Assembly (NCBI GenBank): GCA_965219535.1 | Contig: CBDCNV010000001.1 | Coordinates: forward strand, 300,001-332,000 | From: Opitutales bacterium | GTDB taxonomy: Bacteria > Verrucomicrobiota > Verrucomicrobiia > Opitutales > PNEW01 | DNA length: 32,000 bases | Direction: 5' to 3' | Part shown: positions 6,701 to 26,347 of the stretch, piece after piece | How the letters are laid out: each line of letters opens with the position of its first letter | How positions within the stretch are numbered: the first letter of the stretch is position 1 | Notes under the pieces: generated by a model | What the model was told of the DNA's origin: nothing | What the model saw: the letters and a program-made list of their open reading frames with translations, nothing else | Database searches by the model: none | Made by a program: the position numbers and the translations under genes

Positions 6701-6959
6701 CAGCTTTCTTCGTGTAGGTGACTACAACCAGTCGCTGTAAGCGTGAATGTTCTTTTTCCCCATCAATCAATGCAATATTGACTATTCGGTCAACAATGGC
6801 TTTGGTTTTGCCGACACCAGCGGGGGCAATAACGGAAAAATTCTGTTCATGCTCATGCACAAATCTTTGACGATTAACATTATCTGATAAAACAGTATCC
6901 ACGTGTAAAGAGCGTAAATTTAATGGGGTAGAGGGAGGAGCGGGTGAGATTGTCTCCAT
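3771..6959 (-). CDS. addA: UvrD/Rep-family helicase fused to a C-terminal PD-(D/E)XK (RecB-type) nuclease; AddA/RecB-like
   Basis: 1062 aa. Walker A APAGVGKTK; helicase motifs VVVTYTKKAADEM, VILDEAQDT, VGDPQQSIY, CHKAKGLEWD and YVAMTRARKTL. C-terminal nuclease motif GLIDFV...IIIDWKT...QIDAY. Its start overlaps the stop of the partner gene by 40 nt. Confidence 0.8.
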   Translation of the reverse strand: METISPAPPSTPLNLRSLHVDTVLSDNVNRQRFVHEHEQNFSVIAPAGVGKTKAIVDRIVNIALIDGEKEHSRLQRLVVVTYTKKAADEMHLRTRNAIMEKRVNPEVIRRLNRAYFGTIHSYCLELLRQHGTLLGLPTTVDVTENDELLWSRFLYHTDQLSNILPKKVDRHFFRHTQLEPLYLLARRSRIKSGYTPLDAIGPYPNLNLTPLLEFPPNNRAKGKVEMGQKQLQRWLKAVEEDEGFIPPPIFEMGGKEFQELWRSSFQPLRDWMSEVAFILIAHVSNSYRNFRVSQGVLTYDDLVDLTAEILKDKHVGAEIRTEGKHVILDEAQDTDPAQFEVLTEIARPASAQGTWLKKGGTPPGAGRFCMVGDPQQSIYGSRADLNFYQYAHKKLLKNAEAEELFFEVTFRCDEKIVEGVNLFFPSILDGRGKVGEQVKFVPLKARPDAGSGQIYRTNLELPQEMKGERNQQAVTLAYVQAFVGWLKNLEPSDLRARDWSEVAILCPRNEWLEALDRELKFSAFNTQVLSRTEQLRTLPAYAWFTALMLVISEPENAFEIAGLLREVFGLSDHDLVTYHQYWKKNPERFPTTAHALQILYPIESNGVVVEKLNLLAQARQQALTLPLRDAVTYLVDAIRLRERLNALPLGHSSESQILLDNFITQSGIAEAERMSLSEWTHSLIEKMNDQVKSEASNSDHIQLLSCHKAKGLEWDAVLLPFFSRPIGFALNNYPQFFYSKGKGGPLLAIDKHHEHEDYKIQADREKEKELDRLLYVAMTRARKTLVLFNDEVFFSSNKSSFAERLKISTGASNNKIWSSLPTTNQPETGIEKEVESEPTGETNDEEKEATFNIASLDTARDRAQGKFNRVTPHTLVKPVAEILNDRDEPELILGHEFSEESIVTSAIEYGNWWHTMMEVNRWDQDIVSWKNHCALSVESTACPSSERGKKEIDLFFKSVLVERLLASDYEVSTEAPLLWGRDDIVYEGLIDFVAYDLERKQWIIIDWKTHQISNPDLATNLREQYEPQIDAYATALRDIFGQPVNAYLYATALGQLIEIIKN

Positions 6960-9862
6960 TTTTCGTTGAGAATGTCACTACTGATAGGAAGGGTGGCGAT
7001 TGGGTAATCTCCGACGTAGGCGTAGCGAGAATAGATGGGCCCTGACATACCGATTACACCGCTCTCCTGGATAGCGCTGAGGCCACGCCATAATTCATTG
7101 AGATCGAGAATGGAATCCAGATCGATTTGCGGGCTTAGTTCACTGTCCGGTCGCAACATACTCGCCACTATTCGCCGACCGCCACGCTCACGAAGTGCGA
7201 GCATATAAAGCGCAATTTGCACTCCCGCTCCTTTTTTAAGCGTAGCAGGACTAAGCGCTTTATCGCGACCTGTTTTGAAATCGATGACCCAAAAATCCGC
7301 TGAATCAGGTAATGGCGTCTCATCATTAATCGCGGAAATATCCTCGGTAGAAAAGACGAGGTCAATACGCCCACTGAGGGGGAATTTCAGATCGGCGTTC
7401 AGGGAAGCGAGGGTACTTTTCAGATCCAATTCCGAGGCGACAAAAGGCCAGTCTTTAATTGCCGTCACGGCATCTGCTAAATGCCTACTGTATTGAAAAG
7501 CTTCTGCCCATAAGGAGTGCCACCAATCGGGTAAACTACGATTAGCCCGATCATAGGCGCGCGATACTTTATCAAAAGTATTAGTCGCGGAATCTCTTAC
7601 CTGTGCGGTCCATTCCCCTTTCGCGGGAAGGGGGAAAAATCCCTGACTCGTCGACAGTCGCATCCAATGATGCACCCAATTACCGACGAATAAAGGTCGA
7701 GAAACAGCATGGTTAAAATCAGGTGACTTAGAGACACCCAACACTTTCTCGAACCACACGGAGGCCGGTCTTGAGAGAATATCTTCCCAGCTTTTGCAGG
7801 ATAAATGCAGACCGCCCGGGGGAGGTGATTGAAAGCTGAATTCATATTCACCGTAACCTTCACTAGGATCGCGCCGTATTTTAAATGCATGGAGCATGCG
7901 ATCGATATCTGATACGGGATCCGGGTCCTCGGTTTGCAAACGCTCGCACCATGCCGCGGTCTTTTTACTCAAGGCTTGCAGGTGGATTTCGTTGAGAAAA
8001 ATACCCTTGTCCACCCAGTAAAGACGCAGGAGAAAATCGCTGATAATAACCGATCGATTATAATCTTCCTCCGTGGATAAACTTGCTGAAACCGTTAGTC
8101 CCACCTTCACGCATTCAAGAAGATTAATAAACTGTGCGAGTGCCTGTGACCTTTTCTCCTCCGCGGTGAGGATGAGGCCAACCCCCTTTTTAAGAACCTG
8201 GTGTCCTTCACCCTGTGAACCCTGGAGAATCACTGAACGATTGATATCATCAATTTTAGGTTCAGGAAGAAACGCGTTCGGGTGCATCTCTGGAGGCCAC
8301 GCCCCGTGGTTTAAACCTGCGATAATGAGGTGAGTAAAAGACTGATCCTGAATTTGTTCATAGGCGAGAAGTTGAAGCGGGGCGAGCAGTTGTCGGCCGA
8401 GGGAGTGGCGCGTCCGCCCCGGTGTTCGATTTATTTCAACTAACCATTGAAGAAAATGTCGGCGGTCTATTGAGTAATCGAGCGCCTTAATCAAGCCGCT
8501 GGCATGCTGAGTCAGGAATTCTGCTCTTTCATCCCAGTCGAGAAAATTCAAGGCTTTAGTGGCCAAAGATAGAAACTCGGTGAAGGGTGCTTTGGCGGGT
8601 ATCTGTGGCCAGTCTTCGAGAAATATTAAACCGGCACCCATGGGCTCACTCTCAATTAACCATTCCCGTATGACCGTGAGGTCATCAGTAATTACCGTAT
8701 CCAATGCTTTTTTTAGCGAGCGCTCGATTTTAGCAGCGTCGTTCGCGCTAATCAATTGTTGTTCTCGTCGAAGGTGAAGAAAGCTTATGATCTGCGGTAA
8801 TCGAGCATCCATTTGAAATTCTACCCAACGATTGAGGAGTGCCTGTTTTACGGGCTGAACCGGATAAAATCCGATCGTATCGTGATGCGGAATTTCAAAT
8901 CGTATTAAACAAGCGGCTACTTCACGGGCCAATGCCGATTCCCTGGGGACGACGATTCCGAGGCGATTACAGGAGGGCTGCAGCAAATAATTTACGCCCT
9001 GAGTTACCACCGCGATAGCTTCCAGCTTAACATTCGCAGCGATTTGATAATGAATGGCACTGTTACTTGAAGTGTCTTCATCGAGCCGATCCATCTCAAG
9101 ATTTTGAGCCCTCGTTTGATAGGGGTTTTCAGGCTGTTCACTACCCGAGATGAGCTCTGCTTCCCCGTAGTCTTCTTCCCACGTCGCCTGCCATAAGCGA
9201 TCACTCTCACACCGACTTTCCGGCAGGCAGAACGAAACTTTGTTCGCGGAATTAATTGCGCCCTGTAAAAGAAAACGATGGCGCCATTCGCGAGCTCCAA
9301 AACCATAGAGAAGGAGGGATGAAAGGTTCGAGGTATCCCTGGCTCGCGTTTCTGCGATTTTACGATTCGCTTGCGGTTCACTTAAGAGGCCGGATAAAAG
9401 AAGTAATTCCTCAAATCGGGCAATGATCCTACCCACTAAGTCACCTTTAAGTGACATAGTGGGTTGCGCAGCATGCTGCAAGGTATCATAAGCAATAAGG
9501 AGCTGATCCGGATCTGCAGCAATCGCCGCGGCGACAGGAAACTCGGAGAAATCGTCAGCCGCCGCCGCCATGAGTAGACGCAGGTCCTCACGCAGGGCAA
9601 TTCTATTGTCGGGAAGACAACTGTTGCGCAGATACTTTCCCAGATCTTCCGGTGTCCAGAGATGGATCGCGAAGAGAGGGAGTCGGGCTTGAATGAGACG
9701 TGTTTTAAGGAGACTGGTAAGCCCGTGTGACGGAACGACAGCAGCACAGGGCAGCGGGTTATGACAGGCTATTTGCAGTTCACTTTGAAACCAGGGTGCG
9801 ATCACCTCCTCCCAGGCTTGTTCAAAGCTTGAAGCCGAGTAGAGGCGGATGTTGGTCGGCAT
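6920..9862 (-). CDS. AddB-like partner subunit with C-terminal PD-(D/E)XK nuclease; no P-loop detected
   Basis: About 980-aa ORF immediately upstream of and overlapping the AddA-like gene. C-terminal motif GRIDLVFS...FWVIDFKTGR...QIALY. The start is taken as ATG 9862, which leaves 14 nt after the osmC stop. The ORF track's TTG at 9895 would overlap osmC by 19 nt. Confidence 0.7.
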   Translation of the reverse strand: MPTNIRLYSASSFEQAWEEVIAPWFQSELQIACHNPLPCAAVVPSHGLTSLLKTRLIQARLPLFAIHLWTPEDLGKYLRNSCLPDNRIALREDLRLLMAAAADDFSEFPVAAAIAADPDQLLIAYDTLQHAAQPTMSLKGDLVGRIIARFEELLLLSGLLSEPQANRKIAETRARDTSNLSSLLLYGFGAREWRHRFLLQGAINSANKVSFCLPESRCESDRLWQATWEEDYGEAELISGSEQPENPYQTRAQNLEMDRLDEDTSSNSAIHYQIAANVKLEAIAVVTQGVNYLLQPSCNRLGIVVPRESALAREVAACLIRFEIPHHDTIGFYPVQPVKQALLNRWVEFQMDARLPQIISFLHLRREQQLISANDAAKIERSLKKALDTVITDDLTVIREWLIESEPMGAGLIFLEDWPQIPAKAPFTEFLSLATKALNFLDWDERAEFLTQHASGLIKALDYSIDRRHFLQWLVEINRTPGRTRHSLGRQLLAPLQLLAYEQIQDQSFTHLIIAGLNHGAWPPEMHPNAFLPEPKIDDINRSVILQGSQGEGHQVLKKGVGLILTAEEKRSQALAQFINLLECVKVGLTVSASLSTEEDYNRSVIISDFLLRLYWVDKGIFLNEIHLQALSKKTAAWCERLQTEDPDPVSDIDRMLHAFKIRRDPSEGYGEYEFSFQSPPPGGLHLSCKSWEDILSRPASVWFEKVLGVSKSPDFNHAVSRPLFVGNWVHHWMRLSTSQGFFPLPAKGEWTAQVRDSATNTFDKVSRAYDRANRSLPDWWHSLWAEAFQYSRHLADAVTAIKDWPFVASELDLKSTLASLNADLKFPLSGRIDLVFSTEDISAINDETPLPDSADFWVIDFKTGRDKALSPATLKKGAGVQIALYMLALRERGGRRIVASMLRPDSELSPQIDLDSILDLNELWRGLSAIQESGVIGMSGPIYSRYAYVGDYPIATLPISSDILNEKWRQSHPLLPLPH

Positions 9863-9876
9863 TATATAAAGATGGG

Positions 9877-10293
9877 TCAGTCTTCGTCTACCCAATGAAA
9901 ACAGATGGGTTTATCGATATCGGGGTTCAGGCTGTAATGGACGGGGCAAGTCTCAGCAGCATGAATTAAAGCAGCTTTATGTTCCTCCGTCAGCTTACCG
10001 GGGACCCAGAACTCGACCGGCAGACGCATGATGCGTCTCGGTTTATCGCTGGTCATCTCTTTAGTCACTTCAACCTTCATCCCTTTCAGGTCGACCCCAA
10101 TTTTTTCAGCCTGAATCCCCATAATTGTCGCCATGCAGGTTGCGAATGCGGTGGCGCAGAGATCAGTTGGGGAAAAGCTTTCACCACGCCCATTATTATC
10201 AACCGGGGCATCGGTATTGAGCTGGGATCCCGATGGTCCATGAATCACCTGACAATGCAATTGACCCTCGTATTCTGCAGTAATTTTAACCAT
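9877..10293 (-). CDS. OsmC/Ohr-family protein (putative peroxiredoxin-type redox protein)
   Basis: 138 aa. It has the typical OsmC-family size and the two conserved Cys contexts (SPTDLCATAFATC and AETCPV). Confidence 0.85.
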   Translation of the reverse strand: MVKITAEYEGQLHCQVIHGPSGSQLNTDAPVDNNGRGESFSPTDLCATAFATCMATIMGIQAEKIGVDLKGMKVEVTKEMTSDKPRRIMRLPVEFWVPGKLTEEHKAALIHAAETCPVHYSLNPDIDKPICFHWVDED

Positions 10294-11736: not shown

Positions 11737-11911
11737 GCGCTTATTCAAGGTTAAATTAGCGACAGAATAGAATAGCGCGATTATTTCATTTTAAACCTGC
11801 GGTTCCTGAGATAGAGAAATTATGATTAAATCTGCACTATAAATGCATTATTGTATTCTCCTTGCCGTTGCACTTGAGTTTTTTATTTAAAAACATAGTA
11901 TTGGAACTCGC

Positions 11912-13618
11912 GTGAAAAAAAATAATGATGCAGATGAATCCTTGCCTGAGGATGATGCTCACTTAGGTCAAGACGAGGAATTCGATGAGGATTCAATTGA
12001 AGAGGAGAATCCCTTCAGTCTCTCTGCGTTACAACTTTTCGACCGTATCGCAAAAAGTCCACTTCTTCAATCAAGTGACTGGATTGAATTTAAGTTACTT
12101 CGCGATCGCATTGAAGAGATGGAGGAGATCCAGGACCAGGCGCGCAACGCGGTCGAGCAATTAAGTGAAGCCGTCGATAAACTGCGCGCACCGGCACTAC
12201 GCCTTGGGACCCTTATTCAACGAGTTGGGCATGACCGCGCCATGGTCTGCGCAAATGGGACCGATTACTTGTGTAATGTAGATCCTTCACTGCCTGACGC
12301 GGTTCTTGAAACTGGTATGAGAGTCCTCCTTAATGAAGCTTTTGCGATAACTGATTCTTTCGGTCTGGACAAAAGTGGTCCCATTGTCCGCATTCAGGAA
12401 TTGATGAGTGACGGACGTATCCGCGTGGGTTCAGAACATGGTCTGTCGGATACCACGGCCATCCGATCCAGCCTGCTCAATAAAGAGAAATTAAAAATCG
12501 GTATGGATGTGAGACTCGATCCGAATCAAAAGGTGGTGGTGGAAATTATTGGGCAGGCGAATAGAATCGAACGCAGTCTCGCCACCGTAGAACCGGTGCC
12601 CTGGGAAGCTGTCGGTGGCCAGGAGGAAGCGATTGAGGCCATACGCGACTCTATTGAATTACCTTTTTTACACGCTCATCTCTATAAGCAATATAACCAC
12701 CCGGCTCCCAAGGGGTTCCTTCTTCATGGTCCGCCCGGATGCGGGAAGACGTTGATGGGTAAAGCGACCGCCCACAATTTGAGACAGCAGGTACTGGCGC
12801 ACAGTGGTGAAAACCGAGCGGAATTTTTTTTACAAGTCAAAGGCCCGGAGATTCTTAATATGTGGCTTGGTGAATCAGAACGTCAGGTCCGCGATCTCTT
12901 TGCACAGTGTCGTGAAAAAGCTTCTGAAGGTCAGCTCGCTTTTCTGTTTATCGATGAGGCAGAATCGATTTTAGGCACGCGCGGTGCATTTCGGTCAGGT
13001 AACAGTATTGTATCCACACTTGTTCCGATGTTTTGCGCGGAAATGGATGGGATTGAGGCATTGAAAAATGTGGTAGTCATCCTGGCATCGAATCGTGCCG
13101 ATCTTATCGATCCCGCGATATTGCGGCCCGGACGTATTGATCGAAAGATTGGGGTTAAGCGTCCTAACAGCGAGGCGGCACGTGATATTTATGGAATTTA
13201 TCTCAATGAAGCGCTGCCTCTGGCCGAGCCGCGTGACAAGCTTATCGATGGAATTGTAAGCACACATTATGCGAAGAGCGAATCCAACCGATTTCTTGAA
13301 GTTACCTATCGCAGCGGCAAACGAGAGCATCTTTATCGCGGTGATCTTTCAAGCGGCGCGGTGATAGCAGCCATCGTCGAACGGGCCAAGGGCATTGCGA
13401 TTAAAAGAACGATAAAAGAAGGAAAAGACACGCCTTCGCCAATTACATCCGAGGACCTTCAACAAGCCTTCGATAAAGAATATCAGGAAAATGAATTATT
13501 TCCTCCCACTGATATGACGGAAGACTGGCTTAAATTAACGGATTTTGACCCTTCTAATATTGTCAGTCTCAATCCGTATCGGAAAAAAACGCGAGAAAGT
13601 CACGGCTCGTCAGTATAG
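11912..13618 (+). CDS. mpa: Proteasome-associated AAA+ ATPase (Mpa/ARC homologue)
   Basis: 568 aa with a GTG start. Walker A GPPGCGKTL, Walker B FLFIDEAES, and ASNRADLIDPAILRPGRIDRKI. A coiled-coil-like segment (IEEMEEIQDQARNAVEQLSEAVDKLRA) is followed by an OB-like region. The AAA module is collinear, block by block, with my memory of M. tuberculosis Mpa (KGPE.LN...GE.ER..R..F...REKASEG). Confidence 0.9.
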   Translation: MKKNNDADESLPEDDAHLGQDEEFDEDSIEEENPFSLSALQLFDRIAKSPLLQSSDWIEFKLLRDRIEEMEEIQDQARNAVEQLSEAVDKLRAPALRLGTLIQRVGHDRAMVCANGTDYLCNVDPSLPDAVLETGMRVLLNEAFAITDSFGLDKSGPIVRIQELMSDGRIRVGSEHGLSDTTAIRSSLLNKEKLKIGMDVRLDPNQKVVVEIIGQANRIERSLATVEPVPWEAVGGQEEAIEAIRDSIELPFLHAHLYKQYNHPAPKGFLLHGPPGCGKTLMGKATAHNLRQQVLAHSGENRAEFFLQVKGPEILNMWLGESERQVRDLFAQCREKASEGQLAFLFIDEAESILGTRGAFRSGNSIVSTLVPMFCAEMDGIEALKNVVVILASNRADLIDPAILRPGRIDRKIGVKRPNSEAARDIYGIYLNEALPLAEPRDKLIDGIVSTHYAKSESNRFLEVTYRSGKREHLYRGDLSSGAVIAAIVERAKGIAIKRTIKEGKDTPSPITSEDLQQAFDKEYQENELFPPTDMTEDWLKLTDFDPSNIVSLNPYRKKTRESHGSSV

Positions 13619-13636
13619 AATTGGCGCTGAACGTAT

Positions 13637-15160
13637 ATGGCGGATATACACTTCGGTCTGGAAACAGAATTCGGCATAACGCGTCAGAACGCTGAGGGAA
13701 TCGATGTCGTTGCCGAGTCGATCGCTCTCGTTAAAAGCGCGAAGGCATCCGGTATCCGATTGCGATGGGATTACCATTATGAAGATCCCCATCAAGACGC
13801 GCGAGGATTTCGGGTAAAAGAACTAAAGCAGGATTTTGATGAAGCAAACTACTTCGCCCAGGATGCCGCGCGAACCTTAACCTTAGGAGAAATTAAGAGC
13901 GATTTGGTCTTAATCAACGGCGCGCGGTTTTATAATGATCACGCTCACCCGGAATATTGTACGCCTGAGTGCCGCTCGCTGTTACAACTGGTCCAGCAGG
14001 ATTACATCGGCGATCAATTGCTCATGAACTGTGCAAAGGCGATAAATAAAAAAACGGACAATCCCGTTATGCTCTATAAAAATAATACCGATTTTCAGGG
14101 CCATAGCTATGGTTGTCATGAGAATTATTTAATCCCGCGCGAATTACCCTGGGAAACACTCGCCCAGGGGATCCAGGCATTTTTTGTCACGCGGCAGCTA
14201 TTTTGCGGGGCCGGTAAATACGGTTGGGAAAGCGAGGATAAGTACCTGCAGTCAGGCTTTCAAATCAGTCAGCGCAGCGACTTTTTTTCCGAACTGCAAA
14301 GCGTGGATACGATGCAGCGGCGGCCGATTGTTAACACGCGAGATGAGCCCCATGCAGATGAAGATAAATGGCGCCGCTTTCACGTGATTATCGGTGATGC
14401 CAATCTATCGCCTTATGCGACCTGGTTAAAAGTCGGCACGACTGCCTTAGTTATCAATTGTTTAATAAACGGGGTCAAATCTGATGAGATCCCGCAACTC
14501 GATGATCCTCTTCATGCGTTAAAGTCTATATCGCGCGATCCTTATTGGAAATGGATCGTACGAACAGCCGATGGAAGAACGAGTAATGCGATTGAGGTCC
14601 AACGCCGTTATCTGGAACTGGCGCGTCGATATGGTGATAATATGCAGGGGGAATGGCAGCTGATCTTTGAGGCCTGGGAGAAAATCCTCGATGATTTAGA
14701 GAATAATCCGATCTCTACTGCGGATCGGCTCGATTGGGCGGCAAAATATAAACTTATCGAATCTTTTCGCGAAACGGAAAAAATCAGTGATGATTCTGCG
14801 TGGCTGCGAAGTTTGGATCTCGAATACCATCGGCTCGATCAAAATGAAGGACTTTATTACGCCTTACTCGAGCAAGGCACCCTCTCGTTGCCTTATGCGG
14901 CCGAAGAATTTATGGTTGATACGATAATTTCACCCCGAGACACCCGTGCGGCGATAAGAGGCGCCTGTATTGAAAAGTTCGGTTCACGCATAATAAGTGC
15001 ACAATGGGACTGTGTCCGGATCGAAGGGGATGTAAAAAAGATTGAACTTAATTTGCGTGATCTATTTGATGTAGGTATTATTAATCAAGGAATAAAGCTA
15101 ATTAAATTAGCAAGCAAAGCTGAAGATTTGGAGCAGCTGCCGTTTGCGAGTGTTATTTAA
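13637..15160 (+). CDS. dop: Dop-like deamidase/depupylase (Pup-ligase superfamily, long paralogue)
   Basis: 507 aa. Motifs GLETEFG, RWDYHYEDPHQDARGF (Dop-loop region), NGARFYNDHAHPEYCTPEC, YGCHENY, GFQISQRSDF, VNTRDEPHAD..WRRFHVIIGDANL and LDWAAKYKL. It sits between the ATPase and the tag gene, as dop does in actinobacteria. Confidence 0.85.
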   Translation: MADIHFGLETEFGITRQNAEGIDVVAESIALVKSAKASGIRLRWDYHYEDPHQDARGFRVKELKQDFDEANYFAQDAARTLTLGEIKSDLVLINGARFYNDHAHPEYCTPECRSLLQLVQQDYIGDQLLMNCAKAINKKTDNPVMLYKNNTDFQGHSYGCHENYLIPRELPWETLAQGIQAFFVTRQLFCGAGKYGWESEDKYLQSGFQISQRSDFFSELQSVDTMQRRPIVNTRDEPHADEDKWRRFHVIIGDANLSPYATWLKVGTTALVINCLINGVKSDEIPQLDDPLHALKSISRDPYWKWIVRTADGRTSNAIEVQRRYLELARRYGDNMQGEWQLIFEAWEKILDDLENNPISTADRLDWAAKYKLIESFRETEKISDDSAWLRSLDLEYHRLDQNEGLYYALLEQGTLSLPYAAEEFMVDTIISPRDTRAAIRGACIEKFGSRIISAQWDCVRIEGDVKKIELNLRDLFDVGIINQGIKLIKLASKAEDLEQLPFASVI

Positions 15161-15177
15161 GCGACAAGACTTATATT

Positions 15178-15354
15178 ATGCCAGATCCCACGAGAAAAGT
15201 TAAACCGATGAATCCAGCACCTGGCGGGGGCGGCGATGGCGAGGGGCCCAAGGAACCGAAGGTCAAAAAACCGAACACCGATGACCTGCTGAAACGAATG
15301 AAAAAGGTTGATCCTGACCAGGCAAAACGCTACCGCCAGCGTACCGGTCAATAG
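15178..15354 (+). CDS. Small ubiquitin-like modifier of the Pup/UBact type (58 aa, C-terminus ...YRQRTGQ)
   Basis: ATG at 15178 to TAG at 15352-15354. Translation: MPDPTRKVKPMNPAPGGGGDGEGPKEPKVKKPNTDDLLKRMKKVDPDQAKRYRQRTGQ. It is below the 60-aa cut-off of the ORF track. It occupies the pup position between dop and prcB, has a Gly/Pro-rich N-half and ends in Gly-Gln. Confidence 0.8.
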   Translation: MPDPTRKVKPMNPAPGGGGDGEGPKEPKVKKPNTDDLLKRMKKVDPDQAKRYRQRTGQ

Positions 15355-15357
15355 TCA

Positions 15358-16137
15358 TTGCTGATAATGAGTGATCCCCGCGCAATGAACGGTGACTTTT
15401 TATCTTTGTTGCCCAAGCATCCATTTCCTCATCTCGAACAGTTGAGTAATCAGACGTCGACCCTTGAAGCGACCACCGTATTTGCTTTTCACTGCAAGGA
15501 GGGTGTTCTTTTCGCGGGGGATCATCGCGCGACAAGTGGGAATGTCATTTTTTCTGACAGCACGGAGAAAATTCTTGAACTTGATGAGCGATCGATCATG
15601 GCAATCGCGGGATCACCGGCGATCGCCATAGAAATGGCTAGAACCTTGCGCACGGCATTTGAATTTTACCGCCGCAGCCAGTTGCAACCGATGAGCCTGG
15701 CCGCTAAAGTGCGCGCGCTTTCCCGTCTTCTGCGTGATAATCTTCCGGTAACCCTTCAAGGTGTGGGAGCGGTTGCGCCCCTCTTTGCCGGACAGGACAG
15801 TACGGGAGATAAAGCAATTCCGACTATTTACTTTTACGATCCGCTGGGTGCGAATTTTGAAGCGGCTAACTATGCCGCTTCAGGATCTGGCTCCGGTCAT
15901 ATCAAGAGTGTGCTCAGCTATCTGGAAAATTGGGGAAACCCTAAACCCGCGGATATGGATCTGCCGGTATCCGTCAATCTGGCCAATCGATTGCTGATGA
16001 CCGCCGCTGAATTTGACGCAGCGACCGGTGGAGTGAAGCCCGAGACTAAATCATTTGCGACGATTAAACTGCTTTCCAAAAACGGTGTGCGCTCTCTCGA
16101 TGCGAACGAACAGATGAAATACTGGAAGGCGAACTGA
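15358..16137 (+). CDS. prcB: 20S proteasome beta subunit with propeptide
   Basis: 259 aa from TTG 15358; ATG 15367 is the more likely start. Aligned by eye to Mtb PrcB, TTVFAFHCKEGVLFAGDHRATSG...EK supplies Thr1 (15472), Asp17 and Lys33. The stop lies 2 nt before the prcA ATG. Confidence 0.9.
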   Translation: MLIMSDPRAMNGDFLSLLPKHPFPHLEQLSNQTSTLEATTVFAFHCKEGVLFAGDHRATSGNVIFSDSTEKILELDERSIMAIAGSPAIAIEMARTLRTAFEFYRRSQLQPMSLAAKVRALSRLLRDNLPVTLQGVGAVAPLFAGQDSTGDKAIPTIYFYDPLGANFEAANYAASGSGSGHIKSVLSYLENWGNPKPADMDLPVSVNLANRLLMTAAEFDAATGGVKPETKSFATIKLLSKNGVRSLDANEQMKYWKAN

Positions 16138-16139
16138 TC

Positions 16140-16859
16140 ATGCATGAAGAACCCTATCGCTGGCTCGAAGCGATTCAGAATCGTCGTGAATATATCGTCG
16201 ATCAAATCAAGGAGGGCACGCCGGTATTTGCTCTTTCTCGACCGGAAGGGGTACTTTTATTAGGCGTTGGGAGTGGACAGTCTAAAATTTTTGAAATTTT
16301 TGACCGGCATGGTTTAGCAGCGCTCGGCAATCCAGTCGATATTGAAAAGCTCAGGCAGACGGCGATTGAGGCGGCACATACCGAGGGGTTTAACCGCTCT
16401 TCAGATGATGTAACCTTGCGCCGCCTCGTAAGCTTTTCTCTAAGCCCGGCACTGAAAAACAGTTTTGAGCAGATATTTTCACCCCCCAATATGGTCGAAT
16501 CCATTCTTGCTGAAGTGGGACCAACGCCGAGCAAAGACGCGATCGTACGTTTGCGATTTGACGGTAATCATGAATATTCCTCATCCGGTATCGCCGTTGC
16601 CAGTCCCGTCTGGGGAACCGAGTCTATTGCCGCGGAGTGGTTGCGGGAGACGATAAATAAAGGTGATAAATTAGGGGATGTAATTTCTCTCTGTCTGACT
16701 GCATGGAAAGCGTTAAATGACGACAATCTTAATGATGGATTAAAAGTGCCAAAGAAAAAGGTTCTGAACATACCCGGAAAAACTGTTGAAGCTGTCCTTC
16801 TGGACCGCAAGCCCAAGGGTAATGTCCACTATCGATCTTTGGATACATCAGATCTATAA
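16140..16859 (+). CDS. prcA: 20S proteasome alpha subunit
   Basis: 239 aa. The N-terminal segment (EEPYRWLEAIQNRREYIVDQIKEGTPVFAL) parallels bacterial PrcA (..[22 protein letters not shown]..). It lacks a Thr1 active site and sits directly after prcB. Confidence 0.85.
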   Translation: MHEEPYRWLEAIQNRREYIVDQIKEGTPVFALSRPEGVLLLGVGSGQSKIFEIFDRHGLAALGNPVDIEKLRQTAIEAAHTEGFNRSSDDVTLRRLVSFSLSPALKNSFEQIFSPPNMVESILAEVGPTPSKDAIVRLRFDGNHEYSSSGIAVASPVWGTESIAAEWLRETINKGDKLGDVISLCLTAWKALNDDNLNDGLKVPKKKVLNIPGKTVEAVLLDRKPKGNVHYRSLDTSDL

Positions 16860-16868
16860 CCCAATCGC

Positions 16869-18215
16869 ATGTTGCGCCGGATCATTGGTTTGGAGACAGA
16901 GTACGGCTGTCTTATCGAGCCGCCGCTAATACCCGAGAGAGTAATTCCTGAAATCCGGGACTGGTTTTTCAATAATAACCGGTATGGCCTCATAGACACC
17001 CATGATCGGGATTGGGATGAGCCGGTGGGGAACGGGGGATTTTTATTTAACGGTGGCCGTATCTATGTCGATATGGGTCATATTGAGTATTGCACGCCGG
17101 AATGCGCGAGTGCTGTCGATACCGTTCTTTATGACCGGGCAGGTGATCTACTTCTTGTCGATGCCGTAGAAGATCTTGGCTATAACGGTAAAGTTAAATT
17201 TTTCCGCAATAATATAGATCATTACACCGGGGCGACTTTTGGGTGTCATGAGAATTACAGTATGGATCGCCATGCTCCTCTGTCAGAAAAAAACGTGCTC
17301 TCGCTGCTCGCCTTTCAGTCCATGCGTGTGCTCTTCGCGGGGTCAGGTCGCGTGGGTTCTGCCGGTGAGGGGAGCATTTACGAAACTGTCAGTGGAATAT
17401 ATGATAATGCCCCCTATCAACTCAGTCAGCGCGCGGATTACATTCATAACGATTTCTTTCAATGGGTGCAGCACAACCGTGCCATTATCAACACCCGAGA
17501 TGAACCACTCGCTGATCCGAGGAAATATCGACGGCTTCATCTACTGCACAGCGACACCAACGTTTTACCCGCGAATCAATTTCTCAAGGTGGGCGCCTCA
17601 TCACTCGTTCTTGATCTTCTCGAAGATGATGCGATGCCGGAGATCGAATTAGATGACGCGGTCGGTTCACTCCACTTATTAAACCGTAGGTTGGAGCCGC
17701 CGTGGAATGTATTTACCCGTAACGGCGGCGAGGTGGACGCGGTCGAATTGCTCTATGAATATTGGGAAAAAGCAGATCAAAACTATCGGAACCGGGATCC
17801 GGAGTCCGATGCCATTCTCAATATTTGGAAAAAAGTACTGGACGGTCTGGCGAGTGACTGCACGGAACTGATTGGCGATCTGGATTGGGTAACGAAACAG
17901 TACCTTCTGGAACAGTTCATGGCCAATGAAAATCTTAATTGGGATGATCCCTGGCTGAAAGCACAAGATATAGAATATCATAATGTGGACCCGTCGGAAA
18001 GCCTCGGTCTGGCGTTGGCCAACCGCAATGGAATCTGGGAACCGGACGAAGCAGTCAATTCCAAAATAGAGCCGCCTAAAGACACGCGTGCATCTAAGCG
18101 CAGCAAATTGATGAGGGATATAGAAGGACATCAAAATTCATACATTCTTGATTGGGATAGGGTCGAATTACAGAATCATTGGCAAGAGACGCTTCTCGAC
18201 CCGTTTGAAACTTAG
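16869..18215 (+). CDS. pafA: PafA-like tag ligase (Pup-ligase superfamily, short paralogue)
   Basis: 448 aa. Motifs RRIIGLETEYG, NGGRIYVDMGHIEYCTPEC, FGCHENY, YQLSQRADYI, INTRDEPLAD..YRRLHLL, LDWVTKQYL and a C-terminal LLDPFET. It lacks the roughly 35-aa insertion seen in the Dop-like paralogue. Confidence 0.85.
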   Translation: MLRRIIGLETEYGCLIEPPLIPERVIPEIRDWFFNNNRYGLIDTHDRDWDEPVGNGGFLFNGGRIYVDMGHIEYCTPECASAVDTVLYDRAGDLLLVDAVEDLGYNGKVKFFRNNIDHYTGATFGCHENYSMDRHAPLSEKNVLSLLAFQSMRVLFAGSGRVGSAGEGSIYETVSGIYDNAPYQLSQRADYIHNDFFQWVQHNRAIINTRDEPLADPRKYRRLHLLHSDTNVLPANQFLKVGASSLVLDLLEDDAMPEIELDDAVGSLHLLNRRLEPPWNVFTRNGGEVDAVELLYEYWEKADQNYRNRDPESDAILNIWKKVLDGLASDCTELIGDLDWVTKQYLLEQFMANENLNWDDPWLKAQDIEYHNVDPSESLGLALANRNGIWEPDEAVNSKIEPPKDTRASKRSKLMRDIEGHQNSYILDWDRVELQNHWQETLLDPFET

Positions 18216-18370
18216 AATTTTAATTATTCATGATGAAGCGCGCGAGCACCTCGGTGTGATGTAATGAGTAATGTAGCGCCTTATGTAACAAATAAGTTGT
18301 CAGGAGGTAGCAGATATTACACAGTCTGAGATTCTATTATTTCCTTAACGCCTGGATAATCACATTAACT

Positions 18371-19387
18371 ATGTCACGTGCCCTGATCACTGGAATTACC
18401 GGTCAAGACGGTTCCTATTTGGCTGAATTGCTTCTGAAAAAAGGTTATGAAGTCCATGGTGTCATCCGCCGATCATCGACTTTCAATACCTCCCGTATCG
18501 ATCATCTCTACCGAGATCCGCATCTAATGGGAACGCATTTGTTTCTCCATTACGGAGATTTATCGGATTCGGTACAAATGATTAAACTCCTTTACGATCT
18601 GGAACCCGAAGAGATTTATAATCTCGGTGCGCAAAGTCATGTCCGCGTATCTTTTGATATTCCAGAGTATACGGGGAATGTTACCGGATTAAGCGCAGTG
18701 CGAATTCTTGAGGCTGTGCGAGAAGCTGGCCTTGCTCGTCGTGTGCGCTATTACCAAGCCTCTTCTTCCGAAATGTTTGGTGAAGTTGCGGAGATACCGC
18801 AGACAGAAACAACACCCTTCCACCCGCGTTCACCTTACGGGTGTGCGAAAGTTTTTGCTTATTGGCTTACCGTCAATTACCGCGAATCTTACAATCTGCA
18901 TGCTAACAACGGAATCCTCTTTAATCATGAATCTCCCCGCCGAGGGGAAACTTTTGTCACGCGAAAGATTACGCAAGCTGCGGCGCGTATAAAAGTGGGT
19001 TTGCAGGATAAACTTTACCTCGGCAATCTTGATGCCCAGCGCGACTGGGGTTACGCACCTGAGTTTGTCGAAGCCATGTGGATGATGCTTCAACAGGAGA
19101 AACCTGACGATTACGTTATCGCCACGAATGAGACGCACAGCGTAAAAGATTTTTGCGTGGAAGCTTTTTCACGCGTCGACCTCGATTGGGAAAAATACGT
19201 TGAATATGACAAACGTTATGAGCGACCGGCCGAAGTGAATCTATTGAAGGGCAATCCGGCTAAAGCTAAAAGACAGCTCGATTGGGAACCCAAGGTCAAG
19301 TTCAAGGAGCTTGTCGGAATCATGGTTGATGCCGATGTGGAGATGGCTAAAAATGAAAAGGCCTATCAAGAAGCCGTGACCAGTTAA
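18371..19387 (+). CDS. gmd: GDP-mannose 4,6-dehydratase
   Basis: 338 aa. N-terminus [22 protein letters not shown] catalytic context [10 protein letters not shown], plus [12 protein letters not shown] and [13 protein letters not shown], all hallmark Gmd blocks. Confidence 0.95.
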
Positions 19388-19388
19388 A

Positions 19389-20330
19389 ATGAGCGATAAA
19401 ATATATGTCTCGGGGCATCGGGGCATGGTGGGATCAGCCATCGTGAGAGAGATGCGCGATCGGGGATTAGACAACCTGATATTACGCACACGTGATGAGC
19501 TCGATCTGTGTGACAATTCCGCAGTCGATGATTTTTTCCGTAAAGAAAAACCCACTACCGTTATTGTTTCAGCGGCAAAAGTAGGCGGTATTCACGCGAA
19601 TAGTACTTATCCTGCGGACTTTATCTATGAGAATCTTGCCATCGCCTTAAATACGATTCACGCCGCTTATAATAGTGGAGTGAGCCGACTGCTTTTCCTT
19701 GGGAGTTCCTGTATTTATCCTCGTGAGGCACTGCAACCGATGGCTGAAGAAAGTCTTCTATCGAGCGCCTTAGAATCTACTAATGAAGCTTACGCTATTG
19801 CTAAAATCGCGAGTCTCAAACTCTGTCAATATTACCGCAAGCAATACGGGGTTTTATTTCATTCAGCGATGCCGACCAATCTCTATGGTCCTGGTGATAA
19901 TTATCATCCCGAAAACAGCCACGTATTGCCCGCCCTTATCCGGCGGTTTCACGAGGCAAAAGAAGAGGGACAACCGTCAGTTACGATTTGGGGAACGGGG
20001 CAGGCGCGTCGGGAGTTTCTTCATGTCGACGATCTTGCGGGTGGCGTCTTACACCTTTTACAGCTTGATGATCCACCTGACTGGATAAACATCGGTTTCG
20101 GTGGAGACGTAACGATAATCGAAGTTGCGGAGCTCATAAAAAAAATAGTGGATTATAATGGGGAAATTAATTTCGACCCTTCAAAGCCTGACGGCACACC
20201 ACGCAAGTTGCTCGATAGCAAACGAATTTTTACCACCGGCTGGCAGCCGCAGATCTCGCTCGAGGAAGGGCTGGTGAGAACTTACAAGAATTTTCTTGAG
20301 GAACAAATGGCTGGAACTCTGAGAGTATAA
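19389..20330 (+). CDS. fcl: GDP-L-fucose synthase (GDP-4-keto-6-deoxymannose 3,5-epimerase/4-reductase)
   Basis: 313 aa. Motifs [46 protein letters not shown] and [10 protein letters not shown]. It starts 1 nt after the gmd stop. Confidence 0.92.
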
Positions 20331-20379
20331 TTACGGGATTATGAGAACAGCTTTAATAATTATTGCTTAAAATCCAGGG

Positions 20380-21531
20380 ATGAGCCGCTTTTTCATTGTT
20401 GCAGGAAAACGTACACCGCAGGGGCGTTTTCTAGGAAAACTTTCACGGTATTCAGCGGTTGATCTTGCTGTTGCGGCTGGAGAAAAGACGCTTTCGGGAA
20501 TCGACCCTTCAGTTATCGATTTAGTCATTGTCGGTAATATCCTGAGCGCGGGGCAGGGGATGAATATTGCCCGTCAGATCGGTGTCAAGTTGGGTGTGCC
20601 GGTGGACAGCACAGCTTTTACCGTAAACATGATGTGTGCTTCCGGACTTTGGTCTATAATTCTTGCGGCGCAGGCGATTAAAACAGGTGAAGCTTCTGTT
20701 GTTCTTTGCGGCGGAACTGAATCAATGTCTAATGCTCCGTACCTGCTTGAGCGCGCGCGCCAGGGTTATAAATTAGGGGATGGGGCTGTCGTTGACTCTA
20801 TCTTGCGCGACGGGCTGGTCGACAGTTTCGATCATCAGCACATGGGCATGAACGCAGAACGTCTCGCGAAAGAATATAATATAAGCCGCGCAGAGCAGGA
20901 TACTTTTGCCGAAGTCAGTCAAAGGCGTTATGCCGAAGCGGCGAGCGAAGGTCACTTTGATGCGGAAATGATCGCTATGAATGAGCTGGACAGCGACGAA
21001 CATCCGCGTCCGGACACGACGCTGGAGCACCTCGCGTCTTTGAAGCCGGTCTTCGATGAAAAAGGAAGTGTTACCGCCGGTAACGCATCGGGAATTAATG
21101 ATGGGGCAGCTATCTTAATCGTTTGTAGTGAGGAGGCGTTAAGTAAACATAACTGGGTTCCGCTCGCTGAAGTTGGCGCCTGGGCTTCGGTTGGCTGCGA
21201 TCCTAAATACATGGGACTAGGCCCGGTGCATGCCACGCGAAAATTGTGTGCGCAAAACGGTGACGCAGTAGATCAATTTGATACGATCGAAATAAATGAA
21301 GCTTTTGCCGTTCAGACCCTGGCCTGTATGAAAGAATTAAACCTGGACGCGGAAAAAGTGAATCAGGAGGGAGGGGCTATCGCGCTCGGCCATCCTGTCG
21401 GAGCGAGTGGTGCCCGCCTCGCCACCCACCTTGCTCATCGTATTCAATCGGGAAATACGCAGAAGGGTCTGGCCTCACTCTGTGTAGGTGGAGGTATGGG
21501 TGTCGCGGTTACGCTTCAACATGTATCGTGA
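20380..21531 (+). CDS. Acetyl-CoA C-acetyltransferase (thiolase II)
   Basis: 383 aa. Active-site Cys context VNMMCASG, plus NASGINDGAA, GHPVGASGARL and CVGGGMG. Confidence 0.92.
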   Translation: MSRFFIVAGKRTPQGRFLGKLSRYSAVDLAVAAGEKTLSGIDPSVIDLVIVGNILSAGQGMNIARQIGVKLGVPVDSTAFTVNMMCASGLWSIILAAQAIKTGEASVVLCGGTESMSNAPYLLERARQGYKLGDGAVVDSILRDGLVDSFDHQHMGMNAERLAKEYNISRAEQDTFAEVSQRRYAEAASEGHFDAEMIAMNELDSDEHPRPDTTLEHLASLKPVFDEKGSVTAGNASGINDGAAILIVCSEEALSKHNWVPLAEVGAWASVGCDPKYMGLGPVHATRKLCAQNGDAVDQFDTIEINEAFAVQTLACMKELNLDAEKVNQEGGAIALGHPVGASGARLATHLAHRIQSGNTQKGLASLCVGGGMGVAVTLQHVS

Positions 21532-21550
21532 CGCGGGGTAATAGTAGTGG

Positions 21551-22915
21551 ATGAATCGCCCTAACATATTATATATACACTCGCATGATACGGGGCGCTA
21601 TGTGCAACCGTACGGACACGCGGTTCCCACGCCAAATATTCAACGACTTGCAGAAGGAGCTGTTGTCTTCCGACAAGCCCATTGCGCCGCCCCGACCTGT
21701 TCACCGAGTCGAGCGGCGCTTCTCACAGGCCAATGTCCACACAGTTGTGGCCAATTAGGTTTAGCCAATCTCGGTTTTTATTTGCGCGATACGGATAAAC
21801 ACCTCGCCCATACGCTACACGCACACAATTATTATACCGCTTTATATGGGGTTCAACATCTACACATCAAACCCGAATTGCTCGGGTACGATCGGATTGT
21901 CGAGGCTAAGCGGACTGCATCATTACCAAACCTGGATATATCTTCGGATACAGTAAATAATGTTCAGGACTTTCTAAAAAATATACCGTCAAAACCGTTT
22001 TTTCTGACCGCGGGATTTTCCGAAACGCACCGCGTGTTTCCTTCACCCGGTATCGAGGAAAATCCGCACTACTGTATGCCTCCAGCACCCCTTCCAGACA
22101 CCCCTGAGATCCGGGAAGACATGGCCGCTTATAAAGCGAGCGCGAGAATCCTCGACAAAAACATAGGTGCGATCCTAAAAACCCTCGATGATTGCGGATT
22201 GGCAGAGAACACATTGGTTATCTGTACCACTGACCACGGATTGGCATTTCCAAACATGAAGTGTAATCTCAATGATCAGGGTACCGGGGTTATGCTAATT
22301 GTGCGGGGCCCCGGGGGATTTCAGGGAGGAAAAGTCTGTGATGCTCTCGTCTCGCAGATCGACATTTATCCGACCCTTTGCGAGTTGCTTGCGATCGAAG
22401 CTCCATCCTGGCTGGAAGGGCATTCGTTAATGCCACTCATTCGGAATGAAAAAGATGAAATTAATAGCGAGATTTTTGCCGAAATCAATTACCACGCCGG
22501 CTATCAGCCGATGCGATCTATGAGGACCACGCGGTGGAAATACATCCGCCATTTCAGCGATTACGCAAAAAAAATTGTCATTAATGTAGATTCCAGTTTG
22601 TCCAGAGACTTCTTACTTCAACACGGATGGGAGGATCGCTCAGAACCGAAAGAAGAAATATATGATCTCGTTATCGATCCTAATGAAGTGAATAATCTGG
22701 CAGGTGATCAAGTCTATGCCGAGGTGCTTGAGGAGATGAGGGAGCGCCTCGATCAATGGATGCATAAGACGGATGATCCTTTACTTAAAGGAGAGGTCCC
22801 GTCGCCGATTGGGGCGATCATTGCAGAACCTTATGAAAGGGATTTGAATAAGCAGCGGGAAAAACATCCTCCCCATCCCTGGGATACGCGCGAGAAAGTC
22901 GATAACCGCAGTTAA
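21551..22915 (+). CDS. Cys-type (formylglycine) sulfatase, apparently cytoplasmic
   Basis: 454 aa. N-terminus NILYIHSHD (metal-binding Asp region), sulfatase signature C-S-P-S-R-AALLTG, and TTDHG downstream. No N-terminal signal peptide is visible. Confidence 0.9.
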   Translation: MNRPNILYIHSHDTGRYVQPYGHAVPTPNIQRLAEGAVVFRQAHCAAPTCSPSRAALLTGQCPHSCGQLGLANLGFYLRDTDKHLAHTLHAHNYYTALYGVQHLHIKPELLGYDRIVEAKRTASLPNLDISSDTVNNVQDFLKNIPSKPFFLTAGFSETHRVFPSPGIEENPHYCMPPAPLPDTPEIREDMAAYKASARILDKNIGAILKTLDDCGLAENTLVICTTDHGLAFPNMKCNLNDQGTGVMLIVRGPGGFQGGKVCDALVSQIDIYPTLCELLAIEAPSWLEGHSLMPLIRNEKDEINSEIFAEINYHAGYQPMRSMRTTRWKYIRHFSDYAKKIVINVDSSLSRDFLLQHGWEDRSEPKEEIYDLVIDPNEVNNLAGDQVYAEVLEEMRERLDQWMHKTDDPLLKGEVPSPIGAIIAEPYERDLNKQREKHPPHPWDTREKVDNRS

Positions 22916-22945: not shown

Positions 22946-23500
22946 TCAAATCAGACCAAGTTGCATTTTGCCCTCTTCGCTGATCATGTCCTGGTTCCAG
23001 GGCGGATCCCATACCAGTTCAACATTCGCTTCACCCACACCGGGGACATCGCACATTTTACTTTTAGCATCCTCTGCAATCACCGGTCCCATCCCGCAAC
23101 CGGGGGCAGTGAGGGTCATCGTTACATTGACATTATAATTGTCGTTTTCTTCTTCCTTAACATTCAAAGAATATACCAGACCGAGATCGACGATATTAAC
23201 CGGTATTTCAGGATCGAACACGGTTTTTAACTGTTCCCAGATAGCCAACTCATCAGGCGGGCCCTGGTGCTCTACGCTTCGGTTGGCTTGAGCAGGTGTC
23301 GCTTGCACCTCTTCTCCCAGCGCATCGGCATTTTCACGTTCTATTCGGGCCATACCGTAGTCCCAAACGACGGTAAAGTTACCACCGAGCCGATGAGTAA
23401 TTTTGACCTTGCTCCCCTCGGCAAGGGTTACAGCTTCTCCCGAGGGAACAACTGTAGCAGGACAGTCGCGGGAAATGATTCGTTCTTCTTCCATAGCCAT
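22946..23500 (-). CDS. sufT: SUF-system Fe-S assembly protein SufT (long form, C-terminal DUF59/MIP18 domain)
   Basis: 184 aa. C-terminal half has LKTVFDPEIPVNIVDLGLVY and TLTAPGCGMGP, typical of DUF59. It is the last gene of the suf operon. Confidence 0.8.
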   Translation of the reverse strand: MAMEEERIISRDCPATVVPSGEAVTLAEGSKVKITHRLGGNFTVVWDYGMARIERENADALGEEVQATPAQANRSVEHQGPPDELAIWEQLKTVFDPEIPVNIVDLGLVYSLNVKEEENDNYNVNVTMTLTAPGCGMGPVIAEDAKSKMCDVPGVGEANVELVWDPPWNQDMISEEGKMQLGLI

Positions 23501-23524
23501 GAAGATTATCGATTCGAAAAGACC

Positions 23525-24877: not shown

Positions 24878-24940
24878 GTATTCCTGCCTCTATATTTTAA
24901 CTTTATAAATTCTGCCGTTACTCTCTTGTCTCTGACAGGT

Positions 24941-26347
24941 TTATCCGACAGACCCTTCCATTTCCATGTCAATGAGGCGCTTGAGTTCCACGCTGTATTC
25001 CATCGGAAACTGGCTGATTAGATCGTTGACAAAGCCGTTAACACTGAGGCTCATCGCTTCACCTTCAGACAAGCCGCGCTGCATCATATAAAAAATCTGC
25101 TCAGCACTCACCTTGGAGACGCTCGCCTCATGCTGCACCGAATTACCGTCACCTCGAACCGAAATCGCGGGATAAGTATCGGTGCGGCTATTGCTGTTAA
25201 TGAGCAGGGCGTCACACTCCGTGTTGTTCTTACAATTCTTCAGGTGCTTGGGTATGGAGACCAATCCACGGTAGGAAGAGCGGCCGGTTCCCACGCTAAT
25301 ACTCTTGGCTATAATGTTCGAGGTGGTTTCGTCTGCAGCATGAATCATTTTTGCGCCGGTATCCTGATGTTGGCTGTCGTTGGCTAAGGCAATTGAAAGC
25401 ACTTCGCCCCGGCTCTTTTCCCCTTTGAGGATAACCGCGGGGTACTTCATAGTGAGACGGCTGCCTATGTTGCAATCGATCCATTTGATTTCAGCTTCTT
25501 CCATCGCCATGCCGCGCTTGGTGACAAGGTTGAAAACATTATTGGACCAGTTCTGCACCGTAATATACTGTATTTTCGCACCTTTTAACGCGATAAGCTC
25601 TACCACCGCGCTGTGTAGAGTGGTCGTCTCGAATTTTGGTGCCGTGCAGCCCTCCATGTAGGTAACTTCGGCACCCTCGTCAGCAATGATCAGGGTGCGT
25701 TCGAACTGACCGAAGTTTTCGGCATTGATGCGGAAATAAACCTGTAAAGGTTGGCGAACTTTCACCCCGGGTGGTACATAAATAAAACTACCCCCGCTGA
25801 ATACCGCACTGTTGAGGGCGCTGAACTTGTTGTCCCCAGTCGGTATAACCTTACCGAACCATTTCCGGAAAATTTCCGGATGTTCTTTTAATCCTTCCGT
25901 GGATCCAATAAAAATGACACCCTCTTTTGCCAGTTCCTCCTTAGTATTTGAGTAGGCGGCTTCGCTGTCAAATTGCGCTTCCACGCCAGCGAGAAACTTA
26001 CGTTCCTGTTCGGGAATGCCCAAACGTTCAAAGGTTTCTTTCACATCGTCGGGAACTTCATCCCAGGATCGGCTGGGTTTCTGCCCTTTGGCCAGGTAAT
26101 AGCGAATCTTATCAAAGTCGATATTCTCCAGATCCTTTGTTGCCCAGTGGGTTGGCAAGGCTTTGCTCTCAAATATCTTGAGGGCCTTTAAACGAAAATC
26201 GAGCAGCCATTTGTCCTCACCTTTGACATCAGAAATATAACGAATGGTATCCTCATTAAGCCCAGTGCCGGCATCATAATTGTAATGGGTGTCGTAGTGA
26301 AAATTTCCTTTTTCTCGATCGATGTCTATGGTTGATGTTGCTGCCAT
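24941..26347 (-). CDS. sufB: Fe-S cluster assembly scaffold SufB
   Basis: 468 aa. Highly conserved SufB blocks: [28 protein letters not shown], and [25 protein letters not shown]. Confidence 0.95.

Follow-up and report, generated by a model that had tools for sequence, protein, structure and literature searches.

A UBact-proteasome operon in an Opitutales bacterium, most likely pupylation-like in action

Experiments on bacterial proteasomes that work with a ubiquitin-like tag come almost only from Actinobacteria and their Pup-proteasome system. Pup-like proteins with a C-terminal G[EQ] were described in verrucomicrobia (Methylacidiphilum and Chthoniobacter being the verrucomicrobial examples) and nitrospirae by Iyer, Burroughs and Aravind in 2008, who found the Pup-like gene adjoined by two PafA paralogues and three proteasomal genes (PMC2588565). 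Here we describe a locus of the same architecture in a 32,000-nucleotide (nt) stretch of DNA from an Opitutales bacterium (assembly GCA_965219535.1, contig CBDCNV010000001.1, positions 300,001 to 332,000 of the forward strand); this whole stretch is referred to as the window, and all coordinates are those of the window. Such neighbourhoods are therefore already known, and the tag has curated Pfam and NCBIfam models. What differs from the 2008 description is the host, which belongs here to the Opitutales, and the classification of the tag, which was regarded as Pup at that time and today has a family of its own, UBact. The name UBact was reportedly given to the tag of Gram-negative bacteria by Lehmann, Udasin, Livneh and Ciechanover in 2017 (BBRC 483:946). 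With the known UBact-proteasome loci the Opitutales locus shares the tag models, the phylum Verrucomicrobiota and the clustering of Mpa, Dop, PrcB, PrcA and PafA homologues, and nothing essential differs. On the evidence presented below we consider it very likely that the locus represents a chromosomal, vertically inherited UBact-proteasome operon, most probably pupylation-like in action.

The operon and the two spacers that frame it comprise the following features:

11737..11911, plus strand: AT-rich spacer of 175 nt, presumed promoter region
11912..13618, plus strand: gene for an Mpa/ARC-type AAA+ ATPase, 568 amino acids (aa), GTG start
13637..15160, plus strand: gene for a Dop-like enzyme, 507 aa
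15178..15354, plus strand: gene for the UBact tag, 58 aa
15358..16137, plus strand: gene for a 20S proteasome beta subunit, 259 aa, TTG start
16140..16859, plus strand: gene for a divergent 20S proteasome alpha subunit, 239 aa
16869..18215, plus strand: second gene of the Pup-ligase family, product predicted as 'PafA-like', 448 aa
18216..18370, plus strand: spacer of 155 nt between the operon and gmd, presumed operon end

All six open reading frames (ORFs) are intact and keep their catalytic motifs. They are separated by 18, 17, 3 (12 if counted to the first ATG of the beta gene), 2 and 9 nt, and the operon holds every predicted component of the system within 6.3 kb. An earlier interpretation made from the letters alone (the sequence-only reading) had placed six plus-strand genes with these gaps at 11912-18215, and our coordinates and lengths agree with it exactly. 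The start of the ATPase gene is ambiguous (GTG at 11912 or TTG at 11942), and in the beta gene the first in-frame ATG lies at 15367, nine bases past the TTG.

The 58-aa protein, which the sequence-only reading had taken for the tag, scored above the curated cut-offs of both UBact models (85.3 bits against Pfam UBact PF20513, cut-off 27.8; 92 bits against NCBIfam NF033388, cut-off 35). When it was compared with Pfam-A at E ≤ 0.01, UBact was the only family matched and the Pup family remained unmatched. Thus, in contrast to the actinobacterial system, the tag belongs to a different family, and it is basic (net charge +7, isoelectric point 10.1, 10 Lys). Its N-terminal part is rich in Gly, and its C-terminus reads ...KRYRQRTGQ, followed by the stop codon. 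For the 448-aa gene at the end of the operon a metagenome scan revealed no fewer than 579 relatives, of which 80 loci were kept for comparison; the related loci are designated L001-L080. L001 and L005 encode exactly the same tag as the window (100% identity), and the core KPNT[DE][DE]LLKRM[KR]KVDPDQA[KR]RYRQRTG[QE] is almost invariant across 44 loci, all of which encode a tag ending in R-[ST]-G-[QE] (36 in Gln and 8 in Glu). Because this core is so extremely conserved, a phmmer search of the tag against 1.84 billion cluster representatives detected only 137 UBact clusters at E ≤ 0.001. Among these representatives (50% identity), 110 carry an intact R[ST]G[QE] ending, with Gln as the last residue in 71 (about 64%) and Glu in 39, and one further representative ends in RAGE. 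Since the tag of the Opitutales bacterium ends in Gln, its ligation should need prior deamidation.

The beta subunit matched the Pfam Proteasome family PF00227 with 85 bits (cut-off 22.4) and the NCBIfam model TIGR03690 (20S_bact_beta) with 135 bits, the latter score being under the cut-off of 192. Its Thr39 aligned with residue 1 of the mature PrcB of Rhodococcus and Mycobacterium tuberculosis, and counting from this residue as Thr1 located Asp17 and Lys33. The catalytic Thr1/Asp17/Lys33 set noticed in the sequence-only reading was therefore kept in an alignment with mature PrcB chains. The propeptide would be 38 residues long (35 from the ATG at 15367), with cleavage predicted between Ala38 and Thr39. 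Ala precedes the predicted Thr1 (15469-15474) in the window as well as in L001-L004, whereas Gly occupies this place in the aligned Rhodococcus sequence, and this constitutes another difference from the actinobacterial system. Judged by its scores, the alpha subunit is the most divergent of the six proteins. It had no Pfam match and reached 70 bits against TIGR03691 (20S_bact_alpha), under the cut-off of 139. At the same time, phmmer against the PDB sequences retrieved only PrcA-type alpha subunits (from Rhodococcus and M. tuberculosis, E about 1e-8), and the alpha gene follows the beta gene in every related locus.

The N-terminal tail of the ATPase is acidic; the protein further has a predicted coiled coil, a double OB domain and a single AAA module, with Pfam matches to Prot_ATP_ID_OB_N, Prot_ATP_ID_OB_C and AAA. 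It scored 423 bits against NCBIfam TIGR03689 (pup_AAA; under the equivalog cut-off of 505), and its closest solved relative was the M. tuberculosis Mpa (313 bits, residues 66-551 aligned with 69-582). The Walker A motif GPPGCGKT is found at residue 273, the pore loop KGPEILNMWLG at 310 and the Walker B motif FLFIDE at 344. The domains and the alignment with Mpa support the previous description of this protein as Mpa/ARC-like. In addition, we observed that the first 40 residues of the ATPase (11912-12031) have a net charge of -13, in contrast to the basic tag; the acidic tail is weaker in distant relatives. The opposite charges of the tag and the ATPase N-terminus hint at electrostatic recognition, and self-modification or chain formation might also be possible.

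Two of the six proteins belong to the Pup-ligase family. The 507-aa protein matched Pfam Pup_ligase PF03136 with 481 bits. Against the NCBIfam models it scored 434.6 bits for Dop (TIGR03688, cut-off 492.3) and 327 bits for PafA (TIGR03686), both being sub-cut-off values, and against the PDB sequences 342 bits for Dop and 216 bits for PafA. For the comparison of the two paralogues we aligned 23 sequences of the 507-aa type and 77 of the 448-aa type with A. cellulolyticus Dop, M. smegmatis Dop (PDB 9cku chain G) and C. glutamicum PafA, and inspected the discriminating positions taken from Table 1 of Hecht et al. 2020. The positions listed there separate Dop from PafA, and mutagenesis of such positions switched the activity (PMC7947786). 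The 507-aa protein contains the Dop-loop insertion with RWDY..DARGF and has the Dop-type residues His95, Ala96, Pro103 and Phe208; His95 and Ala96 adjoin the catalytic Asp in the stretch D-H-A-H-P-E-Y-C-T-P. In the 23 family members aligned, these positions are occupied by His in 23, Ala in 19, Pro in 23 and Phe in 23. The residues of the alpha-loop agree with those of Dop in part only. The AlphaFold2 (AF2) model of the 507-aa protein was confident, with a predicted local distance difference test (pLDDT) score of 83.6. In it the Dop loop was disordered, and residues 210-229, the alpha-loop region, were without a helix, the confidence there being moderate (block-mean pLDDT about 68-85). By template modelling (TM) score the model was closer to the A. 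cellulolyticus Dop entries (0.81-0.89) than to PafA (0.71-0.77). The Pfam score, the Dop loop and the Dop-type residues bear out the earlier naming of this protein as Dop-like, and we predict that it acts as the deamidase of the UBact C-terminal Gln and as a de-conjugating amidase.

The 448-aa protein matched PF03136 with 354 bits and keeps the catalytic motifs shared by the family (GLETEYG, D68, E73, GCHENY, SQRAD, NTRDEP and RRLH). When aligned with Dop and PafA, it lacks the Dop loop. Phe is found at the position of PafA Phe54 in all 77 family members and Asp at the position of PafA Asp439 in 72 of the 77. After the catalytic Asp the protein reads D-M-G-H, so that Met-Gly stands where PafA has Val-Gly-Ser and Dop has His-Ala; the one-residue insertion is absent, and Pro replaces Ala74. 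The C-terminal third scored 56 bits with PafA and 50 bits with Dop. The alpha-loop of this enzyme (residues 188-212; 17430-17500) follows the pattern Y-I-x-N-D-F-[FY]-[EQ]-W-V-Q-[FH]-N-R-A with an invariant Trp, and it differs entirely from the PafA pattern of His188, Trp190, Ser194, Ser195 and Arg199. The best-supported reading is that the two paralogues divide the amidase and ligase activities between them and that the 448-aa protein is the predicted UBact-protein ligase.

As to the overall composition, the order mpa-dop-tag-prcB-prcA is common to the Opitutales operon and the M. tuberculosis Pup-proteasome locus. The pair of ligase and amidase with the glutamine synthetase (GS) fold, the tag ending in G-Q, the N-terminal-Thr beta subunit with a propeptide and the double-OB AAA ATPase are likewise common to the actinobacterial system and the operon. 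In M. tuberculosis pafA is about a dozen genes away, in the pafABC operon, whereas in the Opitutales bacterium the ligase gene lies inside the operon, and no pafB or pafC homologue was found adjoining it.

The host of the operon belongs to the Opitutales, i.e. to the Verrucomicrobiota and the Planctomycetes-Verrucomicrobia-Chlamydiae (PVC) group. The window is 96.7% identical at the nucleotide level to the Opitutales metagenome-assembled genome (MAG) OY829953.1 over 17.3 kb, and the flanking genes fit a diderm, in agreement with the non-actinobacterial, PVC-like host that the sequence-only reading had deduced from them. In a scan of one genome per species, the 448-aa gene was found with 98% identity in OY829953.1, with 77% and 54% in two further Opitutales MAGs and with 62% in a Pedosphaera parvula MAG; the six-gene order was present in all four related genomes. 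Among the 31 genome and metagenome loci that were informative, i.e. extended for 6.5 kb or more upstream of the 448-aa gene, the identical six-gene order was observed in 16, at 43-98% protein identity. Six loci (L031, L040, L042, L046, L048 and L052) contain only the UBact, beta, alpha and ligase genes and have unrelated genes at the place of the ATPase and Dop-like genes. In eight loci (L008, L020, L027, L029, L049, L068, L071 and L078) the ligase-like gene stands alone, the other five operon genes being absent within 8 kb upstream, and one locus is without the ATPase. In several loci there is no gap between the UBact and beta genes, or the two overlap. Recurring in this way, the six-gene arrangement is not a matter of chance. 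The compact six-gene operon is the commonest of several layouts and is not peculiar to the Opitutales genome studied, and in some lineages the UBact system is split.

The actinobacterial origin of the pathway and its horizontal spread to other phyla have been proposed by Hecht et al. (PMC7947786), and its distribution outside Actinobacteria has been described as sporadic (PMC7947786, PMC2588565). The operon could accordingly be a recent gain from Actinobacteria or Nitrospirae, possibly in the course of decay. However, the GC content of the operon (0.47-0.55), the GC content at third codon positions (GC3) and the codon usage were indistinguishable from those of the flanking gene blocks, the relative synonymous codon usage (RSCU) distance being 0.45 for the operon and 0.37-0.66 for the flank blocks. 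The comparison of 11912-18215 with its flanks that was suggested in the sequence-only reading thus put the operon inside the flank range. Moreover, Opitutales relatives share the synteny of the operon with the upstream tetratricopeptide repeat (TPR) gene and the downstream genes gmd, fcl and thiolase, at 77-98% identity. Since the composition is within the flank range and the synteny is shared, we see no sign of recent horizontal acquisition and rejected this explanation. In addition, the six ORFs are intact and have preserved their catalytic motifs, and the proteins are only about 35-43% identical to the actinobacterial Dop and PafA. Homologues of verrucomicrobial type are also numerous: of the 8,000 candidates that each search scored, more than 6,100 and 7,999 had E ≤ 1e-10 for the two ligase-family enzymes. 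A recent transfer is therefore highly improbable.

By analogy with pupylation, the system would operate as follows. UBact would be made with a C-terminal Gln, which the 507-aa Dop-like enzyme would deamidate to Glu; the same enzyme probably strips the tag from substrates too. The 448-aa paralogue would then, at the expense of ATP, phosphorylate the gamma-carboxylate of the Glu at the UBact C-terminus and would join the activated Glu to substrate lysines through an isopeptide bond. The Mpa-like ATPase, as a hexamer, would bind the disordered tag via its N-terminal coiled coil, and its WL pore loops would unfold the substrate and feed it into the 20S core, in which the beta subunits are predicted to activate themselves by cleavage before Thr39.

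Several observations weigh against this reading. Our search of open-access full texts returned neither biochemical nor structural work on a UBact system, as the sequence-only reading had surmised when it called these systems almost uncharacterised biochemically, and the whole mechanism rests on analogy for this reason. With the exception of the tag, all proteins of the operon (five of the six) scored below the NCBIfam equivalog cut-offs, in which they again differ from the actinobacterial system. These cut-offs are taken to reflect mainly actinobacterial sequences, and by their scores the five non-tag proteins are relatives of the pupylation proteins and not members of those equivalog sets. 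A further group of observations concerns the 448-aa enzyme. It scored higher with Dop than with PafA in the NCBIfam models (285 bits for TIGR03688 against 245.5 bits for TIGR03686, the cut-off of which is 551.3) and in the comparison with the PDB sequences (210 against 185 bits), and a profile hidden Markov model (HMM) built from the 77 family members also favoured Dop (316 and 302 bits) over PafA (284 bits). A distance-based quartet test with three reference sequences recovered from PDB alignments gave the topology (Dop,DopL | PafA,PafAL), which would pair the 448-aa enzyme with PafA, in only 65% of the bootstraps as against 35%. The alpha-loop of the 448-aa enzyme is without the Thr-Thr pair conserved in Dop and PafA, and DEPLAD is found where both have DEPHAD. 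Its AF2 model had a pLDDT below 50 over residues 162-228, and the helix predicted at 188-202 is unusable as evidence for that reason.

These results bear on whether the two Pup-ligase paralogues deviate from the division of labour between Dop and PafA, which would make the system a mechanistic variant of pupylation. For example, the 448-aa protein could be a second amidase or a bifunctional ligase and amidase of the ancestral type, and the 507-aa enzyme would then ligate or only deamidate. Such an arrangement would be in line with the higher Dop scores of the 448-aa enzyme in all three comparisons, with its alpha-loop, which resembles neither Dop nor PafA, and with Foldseek, in which its model had a TM score of about 0.70 to Dop and PafA alike. 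The NCBI annotations on homologues of both paralogues read 'PafA2 family', PafA2 being the old name of Dop. Moreover, the ancestral enzyme was probably a promiscuous ligase according to Hecht et al. (PMC7947786). However, the positions that were tested by mutagenesis in that study point in the conventional direction (PMC7947786): the 507-aa protein alone has the Dop loop and His95/Ala96, and the 448-aa protein alone has Phe at position 7, Asp at position 46 and a Gly that follows the catalytic Asp. In addition, two activities, deamidase and ligase, are required for a tag whose last residue is Gln, and the number of paralogues is exactly two; the C-terminal third of the 448-aa protein is also nearer to PafA than to Dop. 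Such a departure from the Dop/PafA split is thus improbable, and the reading of the 507-aa protein as amidase and of the 448-aa protein as ligase is preferred. The sequence-only reading had called the latter protein PafA-like. Its membership in the Pup-ligase family and its PafA-type residues sustain this name, whereas orthology with PafA does not follow, the scores slightly favouring Dop; we infer the function and use the name in this sense only.

Another observation that weighs against an action exactly like that of pupylation concerns the ATPase. Mpa needs a C-terminal motif with a penultimate Tyr to bind the 20S core. The Opitutales ATPase is without this motif: its C-terminus (...HGSSV; 13568-13618) contains no GQYL/HbYX motif, in contrast to the GQYL C-terminus of the actinobacterial system. 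The C-terminus has the form [small]-[small]-V/I, without a penultimate Tyr, in each of the 18 ATPases of the family that we examined, which means that the docking motif of the GQYL/HbYX type is absent from the whole family as examined. The tag and its enzymes could therefore have mainly a regulatory, non-degradative role, with the proteasome degrading its substrates largely tag-free and the ATPase unable to dock in the manner of Mpa. The loci with a lone ligase-like gene (8 of 31) and those without adjoining ATPase and Dop-like genes (6 of 31) would be compatible with such a role, as would the lineages in which Iyer et al. found Pup and the ligase unlinked to proteasome genes (PMC2588565). At the same time, the tag gene lies between the amidase and beta genes in a tight cluster with the ATPase gene, and such clustering is a classical signature of functional coupling. 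Furthermore, three features of Mpa, namely its coiled coil, double OB domain and pore loop, are retained in the ATPase. We therefore give a mainly non-degradative role only a slim chance and retain degradation by the 20S core as the preferred function, with the ATPase presumably docking onto the core.

The same features leave some room, although we consider it rather unlikely, for the UBact system being a mechanistically distinct sister of pupylation and not its copy. Within the Pup-ligase family the ligase may have specialised independently, with an active-site loop of its own, and would then not be a PafA orthologue; likewise, the binding of the ATPase to the 20S core may not depend on a penultimate-Tyr motif. 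The basic tag with its 10 Lys may be read by electrostatics opposite to those of the acidic Pup, and chains may be possible.

The gene spacing and its conservation suggest that the six genes form one transcription unit. In the upstream spacer (11737..11911) sigma-70 matches were not above chance. In the downstream spacer (18216..18370) no terminator-like site was found, and the predicted fold was no better than that of shuffled sequences (z = -0.76). The promoter and terminator scans as such performed at chance level (14 found against 14.2 expected, and 12 against 9.1) and are thus uninformative as to the limits of the transcription unit. A search of the whole window against Rfam returned zero matches; this result and the shuffled-level fold downstream led us to reject the presence of a regulatory RNA or of an attenuator within the operon or close to it. 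A role in anti-phage defence was also rejected, as PADLOC gave generic AAA matches for the ATPase only and none for the other five proteins.

The neighbouring genes of the window were inspected as well. Downstream of the operon and on the same strand lie gmd and fcl, which serve GDP-fucose synthesis, followed by thiolase and sulfatase genes (18371-22915); in the Opitutales loci L001, L002 and L005, synteny with the operon includes gmd, fcl and the thiolase gene. On the minus strand, 22946-27657 is an iron-sulfur cluster operon composed of the gene for a Fur-family regulator, which is likely to control it, followed by sufC, sufB, sufD and an Fe-S assembly protein gene, and a TonB-dependent receptor gene is located near it at 29044-31401. 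Also on the minus strand, 3771-9895 encodes an AddAB-type helicase-nuclease pair of 1062 aa (UvrD helicase domains and PD-(D/E)XK) and 991 aa (PD-(D/E)XK), whose ORFs overlap by 40 nt as listed. OsmC and tatD genes are also present among the flanking genes.

The Opitutales locus is a clean and complete example of the described UBact system and does not itself change what is known about it. The UBact branch is abundant in environmental Verrucomicrobia, and since the 6.3-kb operon has all predicted components, it offers a convenient template for reconstitution. The questions that it raises concern the whole family: how an ATPase without GQYL would dock onto the 20S core, whether the 448-aa enzyme acts as the ligase, and why the majority of the tags are synthesised with Gln as their last residue.

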